A DNA stretch of 64,000 bases from Chiloscyllium plagiosum. Taxonomy: Eukaryota. The notes under the pieces are model-generated. The model was not told the DNA's origin. It was given only the letters and a program-made list of their open reading frames with translations, and made no database searches. The stretch lies in NCBI RefSeq assembly GCF_004010195.1, contig NC_057746.1:18101666-18165665 (forward strand), given 5' to 3'. A program made the position numbers and the translations under genes. Below, piece by piece: positions 3,744 to 60,779 of this stretch (positions are counted from its first letter, which is position 1; every line of letters begins with the position of its first letter).

Positions 3744-3977
3744 CTTCAGAAATTCCACACTGTCTTTTTGTTCCAACTGTTTGTCCAATTTTGAGAGTTT
3801 CTGTTGAAGAGTGTTTAAATTCTCTTGAATTTTACAAAGATTTTTCTCCATTGCTTTGAGAATGTTTTCCTCTTGTTCCCTGAGATCTCGGAGTAAACTC
3901 TGCTCTTTCTCAGTCAGCATCTGGTGCATTTTAGTGAACTCGGATTTGATGTGGGTCTGCAGGCTGCTGGATTCCTC
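3744..3977 (-). CDS. TRIM copy B coding exon 3; no own downstream exons before copy A
   Basis: cag|GAGGAA...AAG|GTGAGG; 234 bp open frame. Confidence 0.86.
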
Positions 3978-4069
3978 CTGTCAGGGGAAATATAAACACA
4001 ATATGTTTCTGCAAAAAAAAAACCAAATGAACAATTCAATTGTTGAAGCCAAACCCAGGGAGATTTTAC

Positions 4070-4165
4070 CTGAATTTGGGAAATCTTCTGTTCCTGCTGC
4101 CGCTCCATTTCTAGAGCCGCTGATTTCTTTTCTGTGAGAGATTCCAAAGAAGATTTCACCCGATC
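4070..4165 (-). CDS. TRIM copy B coding exon 2
   Basis: cag|GATCGG...CAG|GTAAAA; 96 bp. Confidence 0.86.
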
Positions 4166-4257
4166 CTGGGATTCCGAGAAAATTAATCAGAAAATAAAAA
4201 TGTTAGACCATGAAAATGTGATGAAATAATCAGGGGATGGAATCTGTTTCCTTTTAC

Positions 4258-4668
4258 CTTGTAGATTCCAACAGCTTCTTTAACCGGGATGAAGCGGTGC
4301 TCCCTGTGTTCCCGGGAATCTCTACAAACCAGACAGATCAATTTCTTGTCAGTTTCACAAAACAGCTTCAGTTCTTCCTGATGTTCCTCACAGTGATGAT
4401 TACTTTCCTTCTCTTGTGGATTCAGATTTAATGTTCGAGCTTTCTCGGCCAGATTTGCTAAGGCCCAGCTGCCTCTGAGGGTTCTGTCCGGAAACTCCTG
4501 TCTACATTCTGGGCAGGAGTTTATCTCCTGCTTTTCCCAACTCTGGGTGATACAGGAGCGGCAGAAGTTGTGTGCACAATCCAGTGAAACCGGATCGGTG
4601 AAGAAATCCAGACAAATGGGACAGATTACCTCCTTGGTCCAACTCTCTCCCTGCTGTCTGGAAGCCAT
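4258..4668 (-). CDS. TRIM-family gene copy B, first coding exon (RING + B-box2)
   Basis: CPICLDFFTDPVSLDCAHNFCRSC...CPEC...CEEHQEELKLFCETDKKLICLVCRDSREHREH; 411 bp; donor AAG|GTAAAA. Confidence 0.9.
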
Positions 4669-4959
4669 GTTCGAGCACTTCTTGATTCAAACTGCTTTTA
4701 GTTTTGATGTTCTTTCCCTTCTGAACACCTCCAGACATTCGCTGCAAGACTGGGAGTTAATCTTGAACATGAATTTATTTCCCACTCACTTATACATAAA
4801 AAGACCAAACCAAGACCAGGCGCCAAGTGAAACAGAGAGCACCGAAGGAGACAAATTGAATGCAGGGGAGGAAGGTAAAAGTCCAAGGAGGTGAAAGTCC
4901 AAGGAATGTTGACAAAGGGAGTGGCTGGAAGGCAAAGGGAAGAGTTGAACCTTTAACCT

Positions 4960-34290: not shown

Positions 34291-35219
34291 CAATGCTAGG
34301 GCCGTCCAGGAGACCTTTCCAATGCACAAGTCTAAAGGTAAGGGTTTTCAGCAGTGGGAGGAGCTCAGGCAGAGGTAGGGGCAGTTGATGTCATCGAGGA
34401 GGGAGTGGGATGGCACGGTGACGGGCAGATTTCTCAACCGATGAAACTTGTGAATGACGGTCCCACGTATCCTCGAAATGGAGCCTGGAACAGGGCTTTC
34501 ATTTCCAACCACTACTGCTTTTCTTTTCAAAAACTGATTTTTTTTTTTTTAAATTTCCCCTACTGCGTCGAGTTGGGTCGTCTGAAGGAGTTCTGAGGAA
34601 AGGTCACCGGACCTGAGACGTTCACCCTGATGTTTCTCTCTCCAGATGCTGCCAGACCCACTCAGATTTTCCAGAAACTTCTGTTTCTATTTCTGTCTCC
34701 AACAAAAGGTCGCAGTGTTCAAGAAGAAACTGACCCAGCCAGAGATGGTGACCAAAGCAAAAGATGGAAACTGTCTCCCCAGTGGGTTTCCTCTGCTTCT
34801 TTCCCGCAGTCTAGGTTAGGGTGGATTAGCCCATGCTATATTGTCCCATGATGTCCAGGGATGTGCAGGCTGGGTGGGTTAGTCATGGGGAAATGCAGGG
34901 TTACAGGAATAGGACAGGGGGTATGGGATGCTGGTCAGTATGGACTTAATGGGCTACTTCCACATTGTAGGGATTCCACAATTCAATGGTTAACTGGAGG
35001 CATGTGTACTGCAGTTGGGGCTGGAGGTCAAACCGACAGCAGGGCAGCATCAGGAAAGGTGCACCTTCCCCATCCACTGGGAGGTGATCACAGGCCCCTC
35101 ACAGATGGAAATGCAGAATTGACTCAACCCATTAACGCGAAGCAGACTGAGGCAAGAGTCAAGATAACCTCACACTCCCTATTCAAACACTGTATTCAAG
35201 CTGCACCTGCAGAACAGGA

Positions 35220-35395
35220 NNNNNNNNNNNNNNNNNNNNNNNNNNNNNNNNNNNNNNNNNNNNNNNNNNNNNNNNNNNNNNNNNNNNNNNNNNNNNNNNN
35301 NNNNNNNNNNNNNNNNNNNNNNNNNNNNNNNNNNNNNNNNNNNNNNNNNNNNNNNNNNNNNNNNNNNNNNNNNNNNNNNNNNNNNNNNNNNNNNN
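35220..35395. other. Assembly gap (176 N)
   Basis: Run of N adjacent to a CA-rich repeat. Confidence 0.97.
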
Positions 35396-35501
35396 ACACA
35401 CACACAGGGCGAGGGAGACACACACACACACACACAGGGGGAGGGAGACACACACACACAGGGCGAGGGAGGGACACACACACACACACAGGGCGAGGGA
35501 G

Positions 35502-35541
<40 letters not shown>

Positions 35542-35957
35542 CGAGGGAGGGACACGCACACACACAGCGAGGGAGGGAGGGAGGCGCACACACACAGTGA
35601 GGGAGGGACAAGCACACACACAGCGAGGGAGGGACACGCACAGCGAGGGAGGGACACAGACACACAGAGCGCGGGAGGGACACACACAGCGAGGGAGGGA
35701 CAAGCACACACACAGCGAGGGAGGGACACACACAGCGAGGGAGGCACATTCTCACACATGCACACCGACACACGCTCACACAAGAACAAACTCACACAAC
35801 ACAGACACTCTCACACTCACACTCACACAGACACACACACAGACACACACAGACACACACGCTCACACACCAAGAGTCACAGACACATTCACACATACAC
35901 ACATGCACACGCATACATACACCACACACACACTCACACATACACAGACACACACAA
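35396..35957. repeat. Compound (CA)n / cagcgagggaggga low-complexity tandem repeat
   Basis: Direct inspection. Confidence 0.92.
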
Positions 35958-36232
35958 AACAGAACAAACTGACTGGGTATCAATCAATTTGTCACCTTTG
36001 AGGCACAGCGGTTTTAGAATGGTTGATGTCTTCAGCTAACGTTAAAAATGCTACATGTTGGCAAGACTCAGTTATAAAAGTCACAAGGAACACCATCAGG
36101 AGGGGACCATTTGACAGCTTTGATAAAAGATCCAAGCTTAGCTGGTTAGGTCCTTAACACCACTTTCCTGACCATAAGCTTGACTCGCCTGCAGATTAAC
36201 ATCTTGTCTAACCAATCTTGAATGTATACAAC

Positions 36233-42512: not shown

Positions 42513-42674
42513 ATGTCGTCGTGGGTGTTGGCGGAGGGCCTGACCAGCGAGGTGACCTGCCCGATCTGCCTGAACCTGTACCAGGACCCGGTCAGGCTGG
42601 AGTGCGAGCACAACTTCTGCCGGGTGTGCATCGCCAATGCCTGGGGGCAGCTGGAGTCCGGTTTCCGGTGCCCC
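42513..42674 (+). CDS. Third TRIM-family gene, start of RING exon (cut by gap)
   Basis: Kozak cgccATG; MSSWVLAEGLTSEVTCPICLNLYQDPVRLECEHNFCRVCIANAWGQLESGFRCP; GC-rich codon usage. Confidence 0.85.
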
Positions 42675-43174
42675 NNNNNNNNNNNNNNNNNNNNNNNNNN
42701 NNNNNNNNNNNNNNNNNNNNNNNNNNNNNNNNNNNNNNNNNNNNNNNNNNNNNNNNNNNNNNNNNNNNNNNNNNNNNNNNNNNNNNNNNNNNNNNNNNNN
42801 NNNNNNNNNNNNNNNNNNNNNNNNNNNNNNNNNNNNNNNNNNNNNNNNNNNNNNNNNNNNNNNNNNNNNNNNNNNNNNNNNNNNNNNNNNNNNNNNNNNN
42901 NNNNNNNNNNNNNNNNNNNNNNNNNNNNNNNNNNNNNNNNNNNNNNNNNNNNNNNNNNNNNNNNNNNNNNNNNNNNNNNNNNNNNNNNNNNNNNNNNNNN
43001 NNNNNNNNNNNNNNNNNNNNNNNNNNNNNNNNNNNNNNNNNNNNNNNNNNNNNNNNNNNNNNNNNNNNNNNNNNNNNNNNNNNNNNNNNNNNNNNNNNNN
43101 NNNNNNNNNNNNNNNNNNNNNNNNNNNNNNNNNNNNNNNNNNNNNNNNNNNNNNNNNNNNNNNNNNNNNNNNNN
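42675..43174. other. Assembly gap, exactly 500 N (placeholder)
   Basis: Run of N; TRIM exon on the left, DDR1 intron on the right. Confidence 0.97.
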
Positions 43175-45100
43175 ACTGACCCACAGTGCACCACACACTG
43201 TCTCCCTATCACACTGACCCACAGTGCACCACACACTGTCTCACCGTCACACTGACCCACAGTGCACCACACACTTTCTCACCGTCACACTGACCCACAG
43301 TGCTCCACACACTGTCTCCCTGTCACACTAACCCACAGTGCTCCACACACTGTCTCCCCATCACACTGACCCACAGTGCTCCACACACTGTCTCCCTATC
43401 ACACTGACCCACAGTGCACCACACACTGCCTCCCCATCACACCGACCCACAGTGCTCCACACACTGTCTCCCCATCACACTGACCCACAGTGCACCACAC
43501 TGTCTCACCATCACACTGACCCACAGTGCTCCACACACTGTCCCACCGTCACACTGACCCACAGTGCTCCACATACTGTCTCACCATCACACTGACCCAC
43601 AGTGCTCCACATACTGTCTCACCGTCACACTGACCCACAGTGCTCCACATACTGTCTCACCCTCACACTGACCCACAGTGCTCCACACACTGTCTCCCCG
43701 TCACACTGACCCACAGTGCTCCACACACTGTCTCACCGTCACACTGACCCACAGTGCACCACACACTGTCTGCCCATCACACTGACACACAGTGCACCAC
43801 ACACTGTCTCACCATCACTGACACACAGTGCACCACATACTGTCTCACCATCACACTGACCCACAGTGCACCACACACTGTCTCCCTATCACACTGACAC
43901 ACAGTGCTCCACACACTGTCCCACCGTCACACTGACCCACAGTGTTCCACACACTGACTCACCGTCACACTGACCCACAGTGCTCCACACACTGTCTCCC
44001 TATCACACTGACCCACAGTGCACCACATACTGTCTCACCATCACACTGACCCACAGTGCTCCACACACTGTCTCACCGTCACACTGACCCACAGTGCTCC
44101 ACACACTGTCTCACCGTCACACTGACCCGCAGTGCTCCACACACTGTCTCACCGTCACACTGACCCACAGTGCTCCACACACTGTCTCACCGTCACACTG
44201 ACCCACAGTTCACCACACACTGTCTCCCCATCACACTGACCCACAGTGCTCCACACACTGTCTCACCGTCACACTGACCCACAGTTCACCACACACTGTC
44301 TGCCCATCACATTGACACACAGTGCTCCACACACTGTCTCACCGTCACACTGACCCACAGTGCACCACACACTGTCTCACCATCACTGACACACAGTGCA
44401 CCACATACTGTCTCACCATCACACTGACCCACAGTGCACCACATACTGTCTCACCATCACACTGACCCACAGTGTTCCACATACTGTCTCACCATCACAC
44501 TGACCAACAGTGTTCCACACACTGTCTCACCATCACACTGACCCACAGTGCTCCACACGCTGTCTCATTGTCACTGACCCACAGTGCTCCACACACTGTC
44601 TCCCCGTCACACTGACCCACAGTGCTCCACACGCTGTCTCATTGTCACTGACCCACAGTGTTCCACACACTGTCTCCCCGTCACACTGACCCACAGTGCT
44701 CCACTCACTGTTTCCCCGTCACACTGTCCCACAGTGCTCCACTCACTGTCTCCTCGTCACACTGACCCACAGTGTTCCACACACAGTCTCCCCGTCACAC
44801 TGACCCACAGTGTTCCACACACTGTCTCACCGTCACACTGACCCACAGTGCTGCACACACTGTCTCCCCATCACACTGACCCACAGTGCCCCACACACTG
44901 CCCATCACATTGACCCACAGTGCCCCACACACTGTCTGCCTATCACACTGACCCACAGTGCCCCACACAGTCTGCCCATCACATTGACCCACAGTGCCCC
45001 ACACACTGCCTATCACACTGACCCACAGTGCCCCACACAGTCTGCCCATCACATTGACCCACAGTGCCCCACACACTGTCTCACTGTCACATTGACCCAT
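43175..45100. repeat. Minisatellite, ~38-bp unit (cacactgacccacagtgctccacacactgtctcaccgt), roughly 50 copies
   Basis: Direct inspection; 34-38-bp variants. Confidence 0.95.
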
Positions 45101-45235
45101 GCAAATCTACACGTGTAACTACACCACATGGACTGCAAGTAGCCAAAAGGGCAACTCGCCACCCTCTTGTTCCGGGCTATTGGGGAATGGCCATACTTTC
45201 TGGCCTCACCAGCTGCATCCAGGCTGTTCAGAGGT

Positions 45236-45525
45236 TGGCGACACGGTGGCTCAGTGGTTAGCACTGCTGCCTCACAGCACCAGGGACCTGGGTTTGATTC
45301 CCGCCTTGGACAACTGTCTGTGTGGAGTTTGCACGTTCTCCCCATGTCCTTTGGGTGCTCTGGTTTCCTCCCACAGTCCAAAGATGTGCAGGTTACATGG
45401 ATTGACTGTTGGAAATGCAGGGTTACAGGGGTCGGATAATGGGGGTTGGTCTGGGTAGGATGCTGTCAGTGGGCTTCCGATGGGCTGAAAGGCCTGCTTC
45501 CACTCTTGTAGGGATTCTATGATCC
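45236..45525 (+). mobile_element. HE1-type V-SINE
   Basis: cacggtggctcagtggttagcactgctgcctcacag head. Confidence 0.85.
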
Positions 45526-45733
45526 CGTTAACCTTTTTCTTAATAAAAAGGGCTCACTGTCCATCATAATGTAACTAGTTTCGCTGCCTCTACAAAGGCC
45601 TACAATACAGAAACCCGAAATGTACACTGTGCTGGGCCTAGCAGCTTTTGACACAACGTCTCGGCAGTTCAGTTTGACCGCATTCTGTACCAAGAATGAA
45701 GTTCACCGTCTCCGTTCTCTTCCTGTCCCTCAG

Positions 45734-45968
45734 TTACCCCAGTCTGGTGCACCTGGCCAGTCAGATCGCCTCAGGAATGAAGTACTTAGCCTCCATGAAC
45801 TTTGTGCACCGTGACCTGGCCACCCGCAACTGCCTGGTCGGTGAGAACTACACCATCAAGATCGCCGACTTCGGCATGAGCCGCAACTTGTACGCCGGGG
45901 ATTACTACAGGATCCAGGGCCGTGCGGTGCTCCCCATCCGCTGGATGGCCTGGGAGAGCATCCTGCTG
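45734..45968 (+). CDS. DDR1: Discoidin domain receptor 1, kinase exon (catalytic and activation loops)
   Basis: ccctcag|TTACCCC...CTG|GTTAGT; 235 bp; [66 protein letters not shown]; LYAG and MAWE are DDR1-type as recalled. Confidence 0.9.
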
Positions 45969-46494
45969 GTTAGTGGCCAACGCGATTGACGGAACCCCAC
46001 CCTGCGTTTCCCCAGCGTTCGGTCCGCGGTGTGGAGCGGTAGGGGGCAGGGGCGACGCACTTACTTATCGTGCCCCCCTGTAAAACAGACCCTATCCGTT
46101 GCGATCCATTGGCAGAATGCGTCAGCCTCCATCTTAGCAGAAGTTCGAAGCCATTCGGGCGAGAGGTGGAGTGAAGGGGAAGGAAAATCGGATTGAGAGG
46201 GAGAACAAAAAGGGACCCCGAAAGCAAACAGAGTAAGAGAAAGATTAAAATGGAAAATTGCCCTCTCATTGCACCTTTGCAATGACAAAGAAGAGGTTAA
46301 AATGTCCCTTTTGCATTGCATTAACAGTATTCACATCACTGAAACAAAATGTCCGCACGCTAGTTAATGCCAGACATAACTTTAACATTTGTCAGAAGGA
46401 TACCAGAAAGTTTGTTTTATGTCTAAACTGGGATGCAAGTTTTCAAATAGGCGACACCAGTTCACACAAGGAGGGGTGCTGATTGGTTAGAGAA

Positions 46495-47380
46495 TCATAA
46501 AGTCATACAGCACAGAAACTGACCAAACAGTTCATGCTGACCATAATCCCAAGCTAAACTAGCCCCACCTGCCTGCTCCTGGCCCCTATCCCTCCAAACC
46601 TTTCCTGTTATGTACTCACCTAATTGTCTTCTAAACATTTTAATCGTACCCACATCCACCACTTCCTCTGGAAGTTCATTCCACAAGTGTTTAAAAAAAA
46701 GAGTTGCCCCTCATGTCTTTTTTAATCTTTCTCCCCTCACCTTAGAAACTTTCCCCCTCGTCTTGAAATTGCCTCACCCTTGGAAAAAGACAGCTGCCAT
46801 TCACCTTATCTATACCCCTCATTATTTTGTAAACCTGATCCTATAACCAGAACTGGACACAGTATTCCAGAAGAGGTCTCATCCTGTACAACCTCAACAT
46901 GACATCCCAACTCCTGAACTCAAAGGGCTGAGCAATGAAGGCAAACATGCTGAACACCTTCTTAACCGCCCTGTCTACATGTGACACAAACTTCAAAGAG
47001 TTATGAACCTGAACCATAACCAGAACTGGACACAGTATTCCAGAAGAGGTCTCACCAACATCCTGTACAACCTCAACATGACATCCCAACTCCTGAACTC
47101 AAAGGGCTGAGCAATGAAGGCAAACGTGCTGAACACCTTCTTAACCGCCCTGTCTACATGTGACACAAACTTCAAAGAGTTATGAACCTGAACCTCTCGG
47201 TGTTTCTTTTCCGCGACACTACCGATCTTAATTGGGTAAGTCCTGCCTTTGTTGTTTTACCAAACCTCGCATTTATCCAAATTAAATTCCACCTGCCACG
47301 CCTCAGCCCATTGACCCAATTGAGCAAGATTTCTTTGTAACCTTAGATGACCTCCTTTGCTGGCCTCTATACCACCAGGA
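46495..47380 (-). mobile_element. CR1-type LINE fragment with internal ~175-bp tandem duplication (~46843-47192)
   Basis: FVSHVDRAVKKVFS.FAFIAQPFEFRSWDVMLRLYR occurs twice. Confidence 0.8.
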
Positions 47381-47465
47381 GGTGCAAGGCTGTCAATATG
47401 GTCACTCAGGTTGCATTTGTGATTTCCCTTCTCCCCATCCCCCACCCCCCCACACCCCGCTGCAG

Positions 47466-47615
47466 GGAAAGTTCACCACTGGCAGCGACGTCTGGGCCTT
47501 CGGTGTCACCTTGTGGGAGATCCTGATGCTGTGCAAGGAGCAGCCTTACTACCACCTCACGGACGAGCTGGTCATCGAGAACGCTGGCGAGTTCTTCCGG
47601 GAGCAAGGCAAGCAG
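47466..47615 (+). CDS. DDR1: DDR1 penultimate exon
   Basis: ctgcag|GGAAAG...CAG|GTAACG; 150 bp; [50 protein letters not shown]. Confidence 0.92.
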
Positions 47616-49721: not shown

Positions 49722-50040
49722 GGCGGCACGGTGGCATAGTGGTTAGCACTGCTGCCTCACGGCGGCAGGGACCTGGGTTCGATTCCAGCCTTGGGTGACT
49801 CTCTGTGTGGAGTTTGCACATTCTCCCTGTGTCTGCGTGGGTTTCCTCCCACAATCCAAAGATGTGCAGGTCAGGTGAATTGGCCATGCTAAATTGCCCA
49901 TAGTGTTAGGTGCATTAGTCAGAGGGAGATATAGGGTAGGGGAATGGGGCTGGGTGGGTTACTCTTCGGCGGGTCGGTGTGGACTGGTTGGGCCGAAGGG
50001 CCTGTTTCCACACTGTAAGTAATCTAAACCTAATCTAATT
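49722..50040 (+). mobile_element. HE1-type V-SINE
   Basis: Full head, V-domain and (taatc)n tail. Confidence 0.88.
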
Positions 50041-50129
50041 GTTTTCCACGTCCAGGGGTGGGGGTGGGTGAGAGAGATGGGACCCGGCTGCCTCTACCTG
50101 ACCGATTTGTGTGACTTGTATTCCTGCAG

Positions 50130-50270
50130 GTGTACCTCCCTCGGCCGCCGGTCTGCCCGCAAGCGCTGTACCGGCTCATGGTGCAGTGCTGGTGCCGGGA
50201 CTCGAAGAACCGGCCCACCTTTCAGCAGATCCACCGGTTCCTCACGGACAACGGCGCAAATGTGGCCTGA
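50130..50270 (+). CDS. DDR1: DDR1 last coding exon
   Basis: ttcctgcag|GTGTAC...TGA; VYLPRPPVCPQALYRLMVQCWCRDSKNRPTFQQIHRFLTDNGANVA*. Confidence 0.92.
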   Translation: MYLPRPPVCPQALYRLMVQCWCRDSKNRPTFQQIHRFLTDNGANVA

Positions 50271-50622
50271 GGGCGCGGGGGTGGGGGGCTGGAAGAGGGC
50301 ACAGTCCCCATCCACCTGGGATCCACCGACCATTCCCCTTCCCTTCCCCTTCCCCTTCCCCCGCTACTCGGCTGGACTGGACCCATTGAAACCTCTCTCT
50401 CTCTCTCCTCTGGGGAAGGGGAAAAAGCAACGAGAGAAGCAATTGCGAGCTGGTTCTTGGAAAAACACTGGATCTTGAATCTTTGAAGAATGGGCGAGGT
50501 GATCGCAGAGCATCTCTCTGTGAGTGTGTGTCTCTCTCTCTCCTCGCAACCGATAACAGGTTTCATCTCAACCTCACAGTGAAGCCCCTCAGTGGGACAT
50601 TACTATACCCGTCATCTCAGCC

Positions 50623-50662
<40 letters not shown>

Positions 50663-53600
50663 GTCTTGTTAAATCTCTTGACTACTGAAATGTGATTGAC
50701 CGCCAGAGAAAGAAGGCCTTATGCCCGAAACGTCGATTCTCCTGCTCCTATGCTGCCTGGCCTGCTGTGTTTTTCCAGCATCAGATTTTTCAACTCTGGT
50801 CTCCGACAGAGAAAGAGACCGGACTGTTGCCTGCATGTATGTGCATTTCTGTGTGGGCAGAGAAAGCCAAACAGGGTGGGTAGATCAGTCCATCGGTTTG
50901 CAGACTCGATGAGTGGGGCAACGAAGAGTGTGTGTCAGAATGAGAGAGAAAGAGAGACAGAACGTTTCATTCACTACAGTCGCAATTGGGAGTAAACAAT
51001 TGGATTGTAGGTGCAACTCCTTTGAGGATTACCTGCATTGTGAGCCCACTTTAACTCGATACGTAACTACTGAAGTGAGTTTTTTTTTTCCCCTTCCCCA
51101 TCCCCTATCGATGATGGAATTCCTGGAGCCTGGATTTTTGACCCAGCGTTGGACTACTGTAAACTGACTTGACCAGTGCCTCATTCAAGGTCCAAGGGGC
51201 CGTTGAAACAATTGGTGCGATCCTTTAATCAGTTGATTGTCCAATCGTCGCGTCGTGGAGGGACTCACTGATGGTACTTGGAGGCATTTGAAGCAACGTG
51301 GGGTGAAACGTCTGCAATCAGTCTTCCGTCGACGTACCGCAAGTTATTTTGGTGATTTATTTTCTCAGCCGTTACTTGATGATTGCCTCGGGTGTGGGAG
51401 GCAGAAGGAGTGAAATCAGAGAAAATGCCAACCCCTCCGCCAGCCCCCAAATAGCCAGCAGACTGCAACAGTGAAGAGCTGGGTTAGGGTTACACCTGGT
51501 CCATTGATGCAAGGTTTGTTTTTAACGGGAGGAGCCCTAACCACTTCGTTCAGAGCTACCAAACTACTGAGAGGGCTGCCTCCTGCGTTGAAGACGGACG
51601 ACTAGGTGTACAGTAACTACTGATCGAACATCTGACTACTGCATGAGGAAGACAGCCACCCGACTTTCAGAAGAGTGACTTGTCTGTAGTATTGTCTCCG
51701 CTACTCTGGCTAGGTGTACGCTTCCCTGTGCCAACACCCCCACCTCCATCCTGTGCCTTGGCTAAAACTGGAAACTCAACGGGCAGCCCTGAAATGAGGC
51801 AGAAACACTGGACACCCTCAGTCGGTTTCATGGGCCAATTTCTTACCGCACAGGGGATTTAATCAGGAATTACGGGGTAGTGGGATTGGTGAACCCATGG
51901 GGTCGGCTGCCAAGCTGCCACCATAACCCATTCGCCTCTGCCCTCCCCGATTCACGGGTTTCCGACTCAGTGTCCCGGGTTAAGACTTCCATTCATTGCC
52001 TTTTAGCGAGAAGGTTTCCAGTTGGGCTCATCCATCGCTGCTCGCTTGCACCTTCTGGGCTTCATAGGCCGCTCCGTTCAGTCAGTCCACCCCATCCACG
52101 GCTCACCAGCCTCCGCCGCTGCGTACCCTTCCATTTCCTTCCCCCCCTATTCCCATCAGTTATAACCTGTGGGCCGTGAACACACCCCATTGAGGTGGAT
52201 CATAAAATCCCTGCACTGTAGAAACAGGCCCTTCGGCCCAAAACATCCACGCCGACCGACCCAGACCCATTCCCCCTACCCTATTGCTCTACATTTACCC
52301 CTGACTAATGCCCCTAACACGCACATCCCTGAACACTAGGGGGCAATTTAGCGTGGCCAATTCACCCTAACCTGGACATCTTTGTCAGTGTGGGGGGAAA
52401 CCCACGCAGACACAGGGAGGATGTGCAAACTCCACCCAGACAGTCACCCGAGGCTGGTGAATCGAACCTGGTGCTGTGAGGCAGCGGTGCTAACCACTGA
52501 GCCACCCATATGTCTTAACTTCTACTCCCTACATTTTCAATAGATGCTTGTGCTCATTTATTTCAGCATGACCACCATCTTATTCCTGAGGTCAACAGAA
52601 TACCCCGTCAAATTATATGAGCAGGAGTATTGGTTTATATCTGTATTAGTTTGAATAAGATGCCTCCCAGTTATAGGGTCAGAGAGCTGTACAGCACGGC
52701 AGCAGACCCTTCGGCCCAACTCGTCCATGCTATCCTAAATTCACCCAGTCCCATTTTCCCATGTCCTTCTAAACCCTCCCTGTTCTTTTTTTTTTGTCCC
52801 AAGCAATGATGCTGTTCCCAGTGAAGGATTGCTGACTGAATTGACACCAGCCAAAAGGTGCACTAGGCAGAAATCCGTTCACTGTCTCCAGTGTCCTGCA
52901 GGATCATGTGAGGCCAAGAGCAGAGGTTGAGGACGCGGTTATATTGTGGTTCCAAGTCACCCAGGAGGCCGGTTTAATTACACAGAGATGAGTCCTCAGT
53001 GGCAGTTTGTGAATTTGAGTGCGGTTCACGAAATAAATTCAAACCGAAACGCTGGCTTCCGTTAACGGTGACGACTAAACTCCCCGATCGTCACAATTAA
53101 AACCGAAAACAGAATCTCAGCAGCTAGGGCAGCATCCGTGGAGGCACAGAAACAGGTGATGTTTTAAGTCCAGGCCTATTTCTTCAGAGTCAGTAGACTC
53201 AGAGACGTGAACTCTGTTTCTCTCTCTCCACAAATCCTGCCAGACCTGCTGGGTTTCTCCAGCACTTTTCTTTTTGTCTTTATTTTCCGCTCTTCCTGCG
53301 CCTGCAGTGTTTTGCTTTTGTAAAACTACACCTTGAGAGAAAGCGAATCCGCCGCGCTTACCCCAATCTAGCCTCCTCATGGCCCCAGACCCGCCGTGAT
53401 GCAGTTGGCTTTTTAGCTGCCCTCTGAGCTGTCACCAACGTCTCAAAAAAAGGGCAATACACCGTCAGCAACGTCCACGTCCCTCGGATGACCGGGTTAC
53501 TAAAGAAAAAGAGGCCGTTCGTCCCATTTAAGACTAACCTCACTGCCATAACTACCTGCCAAAAATGTCATGTGTCTTCCTTTGCCTCCTGGCTACCTAC

Positions 53601-54870
53601 TGGTGTGGAATGGCCGTGTCGCTGTGTGGGGTCAAAAGGTGACCTGCGCAGATAGAGGTATAGGGCAGGCACTCGTCCTTTGGTCCGCTATGTTGTGCCG
53701 AACTTGACGCTAAATTGAACTAATCCCTTCAGCCTGCCCTTAGTCCATGTCCCTGTCTTCCTTGCATATTTCTGTGCTTATCTTATCTAAACATCTCTAT
53801 TGTACCTGCTTATAAAGTTATTTATGAATGTTTCCCTATTCCTCGGCTCCCAGTTCAGATTCTGTTTCACAAGCACGGCCTTTTAACTTCAGGTATCTGA
53901 CCCGGGAGCCGTGAAAAACCTCATGGGAAATAGATGGAATCAGGTTAACCAGAGCCCCATCCCACCCCAAGATCCGCAAACTAGAGCCTTTTAGACCGGG
54001 AGCTGTGGGCAGGTTAAGGTGTGGTTTATTTCAGGGCGTTTGGAATGTTTCCAGCACGGAGTGGATCTTGGACGAGGGGGACACAATCTCACAGCTAGTA
54101 CGTCAGGAAAAAGGGCGGTGTTTGAGTCCCTTTTCATGAGACAGTGCAAATGGAGCCCAGGAAAGTAGATGAAGTCAAGACGGGCATCGGTCATGAGTGG
54201 GGTTGGGGTTGGTAAAGGAGGATGCTGAACGGCCTCTTCAAGTTCCCATATTCCCCTATTCTACAGGTGGGAACTGAAGAGGCTTCCAATGCAAAGGACT
54301 GTTTGGGAGACACTTGAAAATCCTTTTATCTTGCCCAGATTGCTGCAGCCTGTGCATACCAATGCCCTCTTCACCTTCCTCGTGTAAATGCGATGCTTTA
54401 GACCTTTCCCTGTTTGCAATAACACTTAGCGTTTTCTAAAGTTTGGGACCCCCAGTACGTCTCTTGGGTTTCTGCCAAGAACTGGGCCGTCTGTGAACCC
54501 AACTACTGATCAAGTTAAACATTAGGCATCTGAGCTGGAAGCGAGGAACATGGTTGAAGTGTTCTTAAATCATGTAAAGAGTAGCTGGTAATCCAGATGT
54601 TAAAAATTATTGACGGTGAGTAAATATTTGTGTAGCGTGTGGGTGTTTTAACAAATGTTGGTTATTGTGAGATAGAGAATTCTTCTCTAATCCTTTGGTC
54701 TTACGCTGGATTCAAACTGTACTGGATTATTGTTGAGGTTGTGTACATATTTTACAAAGAGATTTTTAAGGTAATATATATGAAATCACTTTGGAGCTTC
54801 TCTGCAGATCCTATTCATGCTTGCAATTTTCTAGGTGTTTGTAATAAACCTTCCTTTGATTGTTGAAAAC
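50271..54870 (+). other. DDR1: Putative long DDR1 3'UTR with clustered miR-199 seed matches
   Basis: Mostly unique sequence after the stop; AATAAA at ~53032 and 54843; 7x ACTACTG and 2x ACACTGGA. Confidence 0.55.
54843..54848 (+). terminator. Candidate DDR1 polyadenylation signal
   Basis: AATAAA after a U-rich stretch with TGTA elements, just before repeat-rich sequence resumes. Confidence 0.45.
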
Positions 54871-54879
54871 AAGAGATGC

Positions 54880-55300
54880 CTGGAGGCAGTGTTATTAACC
54901 ATTCCTTTCTACAGTGACAGTGCACTCTTGTCTCTAAATCTGGGCATCAAGTCACATCATCCGCCAAACACTGGGTGCAAAGGTCTCAGCTGACAATCCC
55001 ACGGTAAGTATTGAACGTACCGTCTGCTGGATGGGATGACCAAGTCGCACCATTGCCCCCCCATCTCAGGTGGGCAGGGAAGATAGATCCCGTGCCACTA
55101 TTCTGAAGAGCAGCGGGAGAGATGAGCCAACACTGACCCCCTCAATCAAAGTTGTGGAGGGAACAGACTCATTGTCGCATCTGCTCTGCAAACTGACTGT
55201 CCTCCCACATTTGCAACAGTGGTCGTGCTTCCAAAGGACTTCATTGGGATGTCAAACACTTTGGGGTCACGAGGGGGCTACGTTTGTGCAAGCCTTACTT
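54880..55300 (+). mobile_element. Ancient Deu-domain-type SINE remnant (SacSINE/AmnSINE-like)
   Basis: Degenerate L2-like tail caacagtgg...cttccaaag...cattgg...ctttgggg...gtgcaag; similar remnant at ~36320-36990. Confidence 0.4.
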
Positions 55301-59396: not shown

Positions 59397-59872
59397 CAGC
59401 ACGATGGCTCAGTGGTTAGCACCGCTGCCTCACAGCACCAGGGCACCCAGGTTCGATTCCACCCTCAGGTGACTCTGTAGAGTTTGCACGTTCTCCCTGG
59501 GTTTTCTCCCACGGTCCAAAGATTAAGTGCAGGTTAAGGTGGATTGGCCATGCTAAATTGCCCAGGGACGTACAGGCTAGGTGGGTTGGCCATGCTAAAT
59601 TGCCCAGGGATGTACAGGCTAGGTGGATTGGCCATGCTAAATTGCCCAGGGATGTCCAGGCTAGGTGGATTGGCCATGCTAAATTGCCCAGGGATGTCCC
59701 GGCTAGGTGGATTGGCCATGCTAAATTGCCCAGGGATGTACAGGCTAGGTGGATTGGCCAGGCGGAAATACAGGGTTACAGGATGGGGTGGGTATGGGTG
59801 AGATGCTCTTTAGGGGGTCGGTGCAGACTTGATGGGCCCAAATGGCCAGTTTGCACACTGTAGGGATTCTAT
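59397..59872 (+). mobile_element. HE1-type V-SINE with internal 42-bp tandem expansion (~5.5 units, ~59535-59762)
   Basis: Unit aggctaggtggattggccatgctaaattgcccagggatgtac. Confidence 0.88.
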
Positions 59873-59975
59873 GAATAATAGCCCACTGGAGATAAATGCC
59901 CGACCAGCAGAAAGTTGCAATCTCATGGGGGAAGAAAGTGGTGGAGCTAGACGATTTGGAAAATCCTCTCTATTC

Positions 59976-60003
59976 CTGATGAAGGGCTTTTGCCCGAAAC
60001 GTC
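59976..60003 (+). ncRNA. Minimal hammerhead core in a Penelope-like fragment (~59972-60103)
   Basis: CTGATGA-A-GGGC-TTTT-GCCC-GAAAC-GTC. Confidence 0.65.
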
Positions 60004-60779
60004 GATTTTACTGCTCCTCGGATGCTGCCTGACCTGCTGTGCTTTTCCAGCACCGCTCTAATCCAGAATCTGGTTTCCAGCATCTACAGTCATTGTTTTT
60101 ACCTAAATTCCTCTATAGGCCTATCTGTACCATCACCCAGAAATTCTACTCCCCTCTCAATGCGTCAAACAGAGGGGTGCTCCAGATGATGTGGTCAAAC
60201 CTTGCATTGAAAATTGAGAACTCTTCCCCATGCAGCTCCCACCCCTAATGCTCAACCTTCAACAAAATTATCACAGAGATACAGGCCCTTCAGCCCGTCG
60301 AATCCACAACGACCGTCCGAAGAGCTAACCGCCCAGACTTACCAATTCACTTTATCCCAGTAACCTTGCATTTCCCATGGCTAACCCACCCAACCTACAT
60401 ATCCCTGAGCACTATGGGGCAATTTAGCATGGGCCAATCCACCCTAACCTGCACATCTTTGGACTGTGGGAGGAAACCGGAGCACAGACATGGGGAGAAT
60501 GTACAAACTCCACATAGACAATCGCCCGAGGCTGGAATCGAACCTGGGTCCCTTGGATGGCCTGATTTGAATCTGCACCCACCAAGCTCCATTTAGAGAG
60601 AAAAAACTGCAGCTGCTGGAATCCAAGGTAGATTCCAGCATCAACGTCAACATTTCAGGTATAACCCTTCTCCAGGACTCCCCGAACGGTTGGGCTCTCC
60701 AACTCCTGATGCTGCCTGTCTTGCTGTGTCCTTCCAGCCTCCTGCTTGTCTCCCCAACTAACTCCAGGTCCAAACATAG

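Follow-up and report, generated by a model that had tools for sequence, protein, structure and literature searches.

The window, a 64,000-nucleotide (nt) stretch of the genome of the shark Chiloscyllium plagiosum (NC_057746.1), contains the 3' end of a discoidin domain receptor gene, DDR1, and, behind its stop codon, nine seed matches to the two arms of the microRNA (miRNA) miR-199, which are the subject of this analysis. Three kinase exons were located on the plus strand by tblastn with shark DDR proteins: the third-from-last at 45735..45968 (start approximate by 1-2 nt; 94% to the DDR protein P0017), the penultimate at 47466..47615, flanked by AG and GT and the sole DDR1-type copy among eight matches in the genome (G000), and the coding part of the last exon at 50130..50270, which ends in a TGA at 50268-50270 and is joined to upstream sequence at 50126/50127 in contigs of the RNA runs X1, X10 and X11. 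In a PDB comparison, the window exons scored higher with human DDR1 than with DDR2 (84.6 vs 76.3 bits and 57.6 vs 53.4 bits). A protein tree of 27 rows clustered them with shark proteins labelled 'DDR2-like' and a chimaera DDR1 (support 95/92), and placed nine DDR2-named rows together with both paralogs of the same genome (on C11 and C30) in a branch with 100/100 support that excludes the window exons. The 'DDR2-like' shark proteins also joined DDR1 (support 100) in a quick tree of 22 full-length rows with a midpoint root; sampling for the trees comprised 24 of 240 fetched proteins, picked by taxon and name. By these comparisons the gene is of DDR1 type, its ortholog grouping with DDR1 and not DDR2, and the identity given in an earlier note on this DNA is upheld by both scores and tree. 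Seven shark and ray DDR1 orthologs (P0001, P0005, P0007, P0010, P0011, P0015, P0017), which the tree assigns to DDR1, are carried in databases as 'discoidin domain-containing receptor 2-like'.

This gene's 3' untranslated region (UTR) extends over 50271..54870 of the plus strand, its first part supported by RNA and its end, near an AATAAA at 54843, placed conditionally. RNA reads and contigs were mapped over 50030-52220. In each of the contig runs X1, X10 and X11, contigs start at 50126/50127 with upstream sequence attached, and depth in the intron bin is zero; they therefore represent spliced RNA, a status that comes from this mapping and not from the run records. These contigs cover the UTR up to 52220, with gaps at microsatellites and a repeat, and the covered part includes eight of the nine miR-199 sites (six 3p and both 5p). 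The earlier note had held that its proposal would fail if the transcript ended before ~50680; the spliced contigs run beyond that position. The first AATAAA behind the stop, at 53032..53037, is a possible proximal poly(A) signal with eight of the nine sites upstream of it, and a second, at 54843..54848, is the likely distal one. Assembled contigs cannot reveal transcript ends; X1, however, contains 0.80 of the words of 50131-55000, close to the 0.83 that its listed differences predict for full coverage and not to the 0.50 predicted for an end at 53055, and the word shares therefore make it likely that the UTR continues to the AATAAA at 54843. At 52018, 14 nt absent from the window are inserted in all three contig runs, as an allele or an assembly difference.

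Seven copies of ACTACTG lie on the sense strand of the 4.6 kb behind the stop, vs none on the antisense strand; the whole window has nine on the plus strand, the other two at 34511 and 61141, and four on the minus strand. Five of the seven are the miR-199-3p 8mer ACTACTGA, at 50681..50688 (22 nt upstream of a repeat fragment and outside it), 51066..51073, 51563..51570, 51616..51623 and 54502..54509, and two are 7mer-m8 matches, at 51153..51159 and 51635..51641. Six of these 3p sites are packed into 961 nt, and 51616 and 51635 form a pair whose starts are 19 nt apart. The miR-199-5p 8mer ACACTGGA occurs in the UTR at 50465..50472, the site nearest to the stop (195 nt behind it), and at 51805..51812, and elsewhere in the window at 245. 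The earlier note had counted seven ACTACTG (five as 8mers), two ACACTGGA and two further plus-strand ACTACTG, and each position it gave is exact. It had overlooked a miR-199-5p 7mer-m8 at 54968, which lies 125 nt past the distal AATAAA (54843) and so probably falls outside the mRNA. All nine sites are on the sense strand and over 15 nt away from the stop, as canonical sites are (54502, which is present only if the UTR extends to the distal signal, by inference). Site 51153 also matches, at 51154-51161, the seed of a miR-199-3p form lengthened by a templated U at its 5' end.

Hairpins of the miRNA that would bind these words are present in the shark genome. Two mir-199 hairpins above the Rfam cut-off were found in the genome (L009 and L010, on C11 and C30), with both arms identical between copies, and their seed complements (positions 2-8) are ACTACTG for the 3p and ACACTGG for the 5p arm, so that the seeds cited in the earlier note are borne by the shark's own hairpins. 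We assume here that the shark arms end where the known mature forms do. The hairpin search of the genome, which gives a lower bound, found no mir-199 on the DDR1 chromosome, and an Rfam search of the window returned no match. Each DDR2-type paralog lies on the same chromosome as one mir-199 hairpin (G000:C11:76167259 and 77341207, 1.2 Mb; G000:C30:4770919 and 39492339). A mir-214 is located ~5 kb from the C11 hairpin; the DDR1 UTR has two 7mer-m8 matches to miR-214, one of them within the repeat fragment, and no 8mer, and we claim no co-targeting of DDR1 by miR-214.

The signal in the UTR is confined to the seed. Along the miR-199-3p complement, 7-mer counts reach seven at positions 2-8, fall to three and one at the neighbouring positions and are 0-2 elsewhere; all seven ACTACT are followed by G, and the 21 one-mismatch neighbours of ACTACTG total four. 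An A stands opposite miRNA position 1 in five of the seven 3p and in both 5p sites (binomial p 0.011 for 3p and 0.001 for 7/9), whereas in the background an A follows 8 of 43 matches of the 3p word and 15 of 49 of the 5p word. Because miR-199-3p begins with A, base pairing would favour T and not A at this place. Argonaute recognises a position-1 A in the target (PMC4532895). In our view, this excess of A is the best sign that the words are selected miRNA sites. The same word could be bound by something else, either an RNA-binding protein or a small RNA with an overlapping seed, and for miR-222-5p, whose match we take to be CTACTGA, that match is contained in five of the seven sites. An A, however, precedes all five CTACTGA and seven of the eight CTACTG in the UTR, and two sites lack the final A, which makes ACTACTG the unit; in addition, the other arm of the same hairpin has two 8mers of its own and DDR1 is a known target of miR-199. 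A different binder is thus an unlikely explanation.

The number of copies was compared with several expectations. In 3000 dinucleotide shuffles of 50271-54870, ACTACTG had a mean of 0.233 and a maximum of 3, vs 7 observed (Poisson p 6e-9), and in 3000 of 50271-51900 a mean of 0.082 and a maximum of 2, vs 6 observed (p 4e-10), while two or more miR-199-5p 8mers arose in 0.3% of shuffles. A genomic background of 341,894 bases from the same genome gave 0.063 per kb per strand, that is 0.29 expected (p 3e-8). The earlier note's chance expectation of ~0.3 agrees with both the shuffled and the genomic value, and the k-mer enrichment that it had proposed as a check is present. A cluster without function, chosen from many words and windows, nevertheless has to be weighed: with miRNA identity ignored, and among 500 shuffles for each region, some 7-mer attained six copies in one shuffle of the 1.6 kb region and seven copies in eight of the 4.6 kb region, and the context of the sites is ordinary. 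Set against this, the 342 kb background and the UTR together contained seven word-region pairs with six unrelated copies within 960 nt, of which one is ACTACTG in the DDR1 UTR and the other six come from two loci that contain a degenerate tandem array of 27 bp; moreover, the leading word is complementary to the seed of the one miRNA for which DDR1 is a known target, in sense only and with the position-1 A. We regard chance as a quite improbable origin of the cluster.

Repeats offer another route to many copies, in that the sites might be what is left of a tandem repeat or transposon that has decayed. Close triples of ACTACTG across the genome number 490, vs 675 for the reversed control, and among the 100 of the 490 matches listed they are tandem arrays, so the genome-wide triple pattern is useless as a rarity test; short look-alikes, 13-21 nt long and with the sites at their centre, also exist (D6, D9, D16). 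The flanks of the seven 3p sites, by contrast, share a pairwise identity of 9.95/39, vs 9.76 +/- 0.61 at random (P 0.37), and none of eight tandem arrays overlaps a miR-199 site, as the earlier note had maintained in describing differing flanks and no tandem repeat. Within 50131-52230, matches to other places of the genome were limited to 50710-50804 (a lower bound on repeats); this interspersed-repeat fragment of 95 nt belongs to an abundant repeat with at least 58 other genomic places and holds no miR-199 site. An origin of the sites as repeat remnants, to which we assign hardly any probability, appears largely excluded by these comparisons. At G000:C3:131112183-131124131, 30-nt units rich in ACTACTGA are repeated over 12 kb; the array looks mucin-like from its Thr/Pro codons and, if transcribed, would carry very many miR-199-3p matches in coding sequence.

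The direction of action could also be the reverse, with the UTR acting on the miRNA, either as a sponge for miR-199-3p, as the earlier note had suggested, or as a trigger of its decay (target-directed miRNA degradation, TDMD) via an extensively paired site. Nine sites on one mRNA would suit such a role, as would the duplex at 51153, the best of the seven, in which positions 1-11 are paired (two G-U) together with part of the 3' end, at -20 kcal/mol. Of 2000 random flanks, however, 6% attain that energy and 11-77% those of the other six 3p sites, so that none of the seven lies below the 5% tail and no extensive 3' pairing beyond chance was seen; in organism B, the most distant run, a substitution at 51152 alters the base that pairs with miRNA position 9 beside site 51153. 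Sponging requires abundant RNA, and raw read depth is low. With no 3p site of unusual 3' pairing, the sponge idea finds no backing, and action on the miRNA, by sponge or by decay, is very unlikely.

The paralogs provide a contrast. In the first 4.7 kb behind the last exons of the DDR2-type genes, each with a short run of N, ACTACTG occurs zero times on C11 and once on C30, and no 8mer of either miR-199 arm was found there in either paralog. At less than 1% divergence from the window, X1 has all eight mapped sites intact. A metagenome scan of 80 loci yielded no DDR1 UTR, one vertebrate DDR2-like locus with a UTR (L058) and one DDR1-like fragment too short for comparison (L082). The L058 contig bears a 5p 8mer and a 3p 7mer at 4878 and 5025, 147 nt apart, in 2.1 kb of its 3' region. 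Among the four UTR regions (window, two paralogs and L058), blastn detected shared repeats only, and the L058 sites have no alignable match in the shark paralog.

Several observations weigh against selected targeting by miR-199. Because L058 has one site for each arm, avoidance of sites by DDR2-type genes is not absolute. Organism B is ~6% divergent, and the 24 substitutions listed for it in 50809-51297 spare both sites there, which has a chance P of 0.47. Site 54502 lies outside the mapped region, its place in the UTR being a matter of inference. Raw polyA reads (2% of run X19) have a depth of 0-4 in unique bins, a single orientation that needs the library chemistry to be assigned, and no visible 3' end; contig depth, for its part, is no measure of expression. 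The flanks have an AU content of 0.42-0.57, an average and not a favourable context, the predicted accessibility of the sites is 0.27-0.81 vs a random mean of 0.47, and canonical supplementary pairing at positions 13-16 is seen at none of the seven 3p sites. Site context, however, modulates efficacy and is no part of the definition of a site. The site excess, the peak at positions 2-8, the position-1 A, the unrelated flanks, the shark's own hairpins, the spliced UTR, the contrast with the paralogs and the targeting known in humans lead us to conclude that the seven miR-199-3p and two miR-199-5p seed matches probably represent selected miR-199 targeting of DDR1.

If so, both arms of one hairpin would guide Argonaute to the DDR1 mRNA, with destabilisation and translational repression as the outcome. 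Repression would probably add up from site to site, with cooperation in the 19-nt pair; published ranges for cooperative spacing are 8-40 nt or 13-35 nt (PMC4532895, PMC6836737), and the cooperative range that the earlier note had invoked for 51616 and 51635 is consistent with them. For illustration, nine sites at 10-20% each would leave 13-39% of expression. The strong repression considered in the earlier note would have to act through sites of no more than average context. The effect would presumably be strongest where miR-199 is high, in mammals the fibroblast-type cells; miR-199a-5p is reported in mammalian myofibroblasts (PMC3573122), and the miR-199 host transcript is described as TWIST1-driven in mammals (PMC3430244). 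DDR1, an epithelial collagen receptor, would in this way probably be kept low in mesenchyme or in cells using DDR2, whose 3' region is without the sites; mammalian DDR1 is reported to be epithelial and DDR2 stromal (PMC4884947).

The pair of gene and miRNA is not new, and the earlier note's statement that mammalian DDR1 is a miR-199 target is borne out for both arms in human reporter assays, as reported in PMC5824028 and PMC5526233. Human DDR1 has three conserved miR-199a/b-5p 8mers, validated by mutation in reporters, two sites being needed for repression (PMC5824028), and a predicted fourth 5p site, a 7mer-A1 (PMC2864763); in fibroblasts overexpressing miR-199a-5p, its log fold change (logFC) is given as -2.31 (PMC3573122). 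For miR-199a-3p, one site was validated with site-dependent reporter repression, in one study of cancer cell lines (PMC5526233), whose count leaves out non-conserved human 3p sites. From these accounts, gene, hairpin and the presence of several canonical sites are common to human and shark, whereas the weighting differs: 3-4 5p sites and one reported 3p site in human, two 5p and seven 3p in the shark. Both arms are also reported to target ITGA3 (PMC5396103) and BRM (PMC3430244); ITGA3, like shark DDR1, is a dual-arm miR-199 target and a matrix receptor, with three predicted sites in the published account vs nine in the shark. A class of mRNAs with many sites for one miRNA is described in PMC6836737. 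We found no report on a shark or fish DDR1 UTR in the open-access literature; target-prediction tables in supplements may give human or zebrafish 3p counts. Other mRNAs with many sites for one miRNA are lin-14 (lin-4) and HMGA2 (let-7), whose sites are validated and conserved, whereas those of shark DDR1 are predicted. The circuit and its mechanism, ordinary miRNA targeting, are thus known; what is new is that they occur in a shark, with the arm weighting reversed and seven 3p sites. Of the ancient dual-arm miR-199/DDR1 circuit proposed in the earlier note, the dual-arm, 3p-weighted sites stand, while 'ancient' rests on the shared gene-miRNA pair and not on aligned sites.

The DDR1 gene itself is broken up in the assembly. 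Exons for residues 58-908 of P0017 were recovered in three pieces with disturbed order: those for residues 58-668 lie ~1.3 Mb downstream of the 3' exons (G000:C37:19427590-19483069), and one further exon is on an unplaced 4-kb contig (G000:C80454), which terminates in a minisatellite that also precedes the DDR1 exons of the window. One spliced contig extends 955 nt upstream of the last junction, beyond what the two upstream window exons supply. On account of the shared minisatellite and the long spliced contigs, the split (window 42513-45968, C37 and C80454) is likely a scaffolding error. The database model P0004 of C. plagiosum ('TRIM69-like') combines a RING exon with two kinase exons and with TRIM exons from far away and passes over DDR1's final exon, so that the DDR1 3' UTR becomes an intron; with its RING, tyrosine kinase and PRY/SPRY parts (window 42513-47615 and past the right end), it is probably a chimera from the mis-join and no real fusion protein. 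A minisatellite of ~38-nt units at 43175-45100 fills the intron that precedes the third-from-last exon of DDR1, and further minisatellites are found at about 35170-36000 and 59540-60100. On the minus strand, TRIM-type RING and coiled-coil matches at 1438-2358 and 3744-4668, ~2.3 kb apart, are apparently a tandem duplicate.

Annotation-based target scans would miss the shark DDR1 sites, since the assembly splits the gene and its last exon is missing from the database model. The action of miR-199 on DDR1 has so far been known mostly from cancer cell lines, and finding nine sites in a shark points to a developmental circuit of long standing, as opposed to a cell-line effect. It is possible, rather than probable, that miR-199 has restrained DDR1 since the jawed-vertebrate ancestor, while the sites turned over and switched arm (mainly 3p in sharks, mainly 5p in mammals). 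Shark DDR1 offers a clean test case for target sites that move between miRNA arms while the regulatory link persists. If this history is true, selection would act on repression by the hairpin and not on given sites, and miR-199 would help to split the two receptors between tissues, with DDR1 in the epithelium and DDR2 in the mesenchyme.

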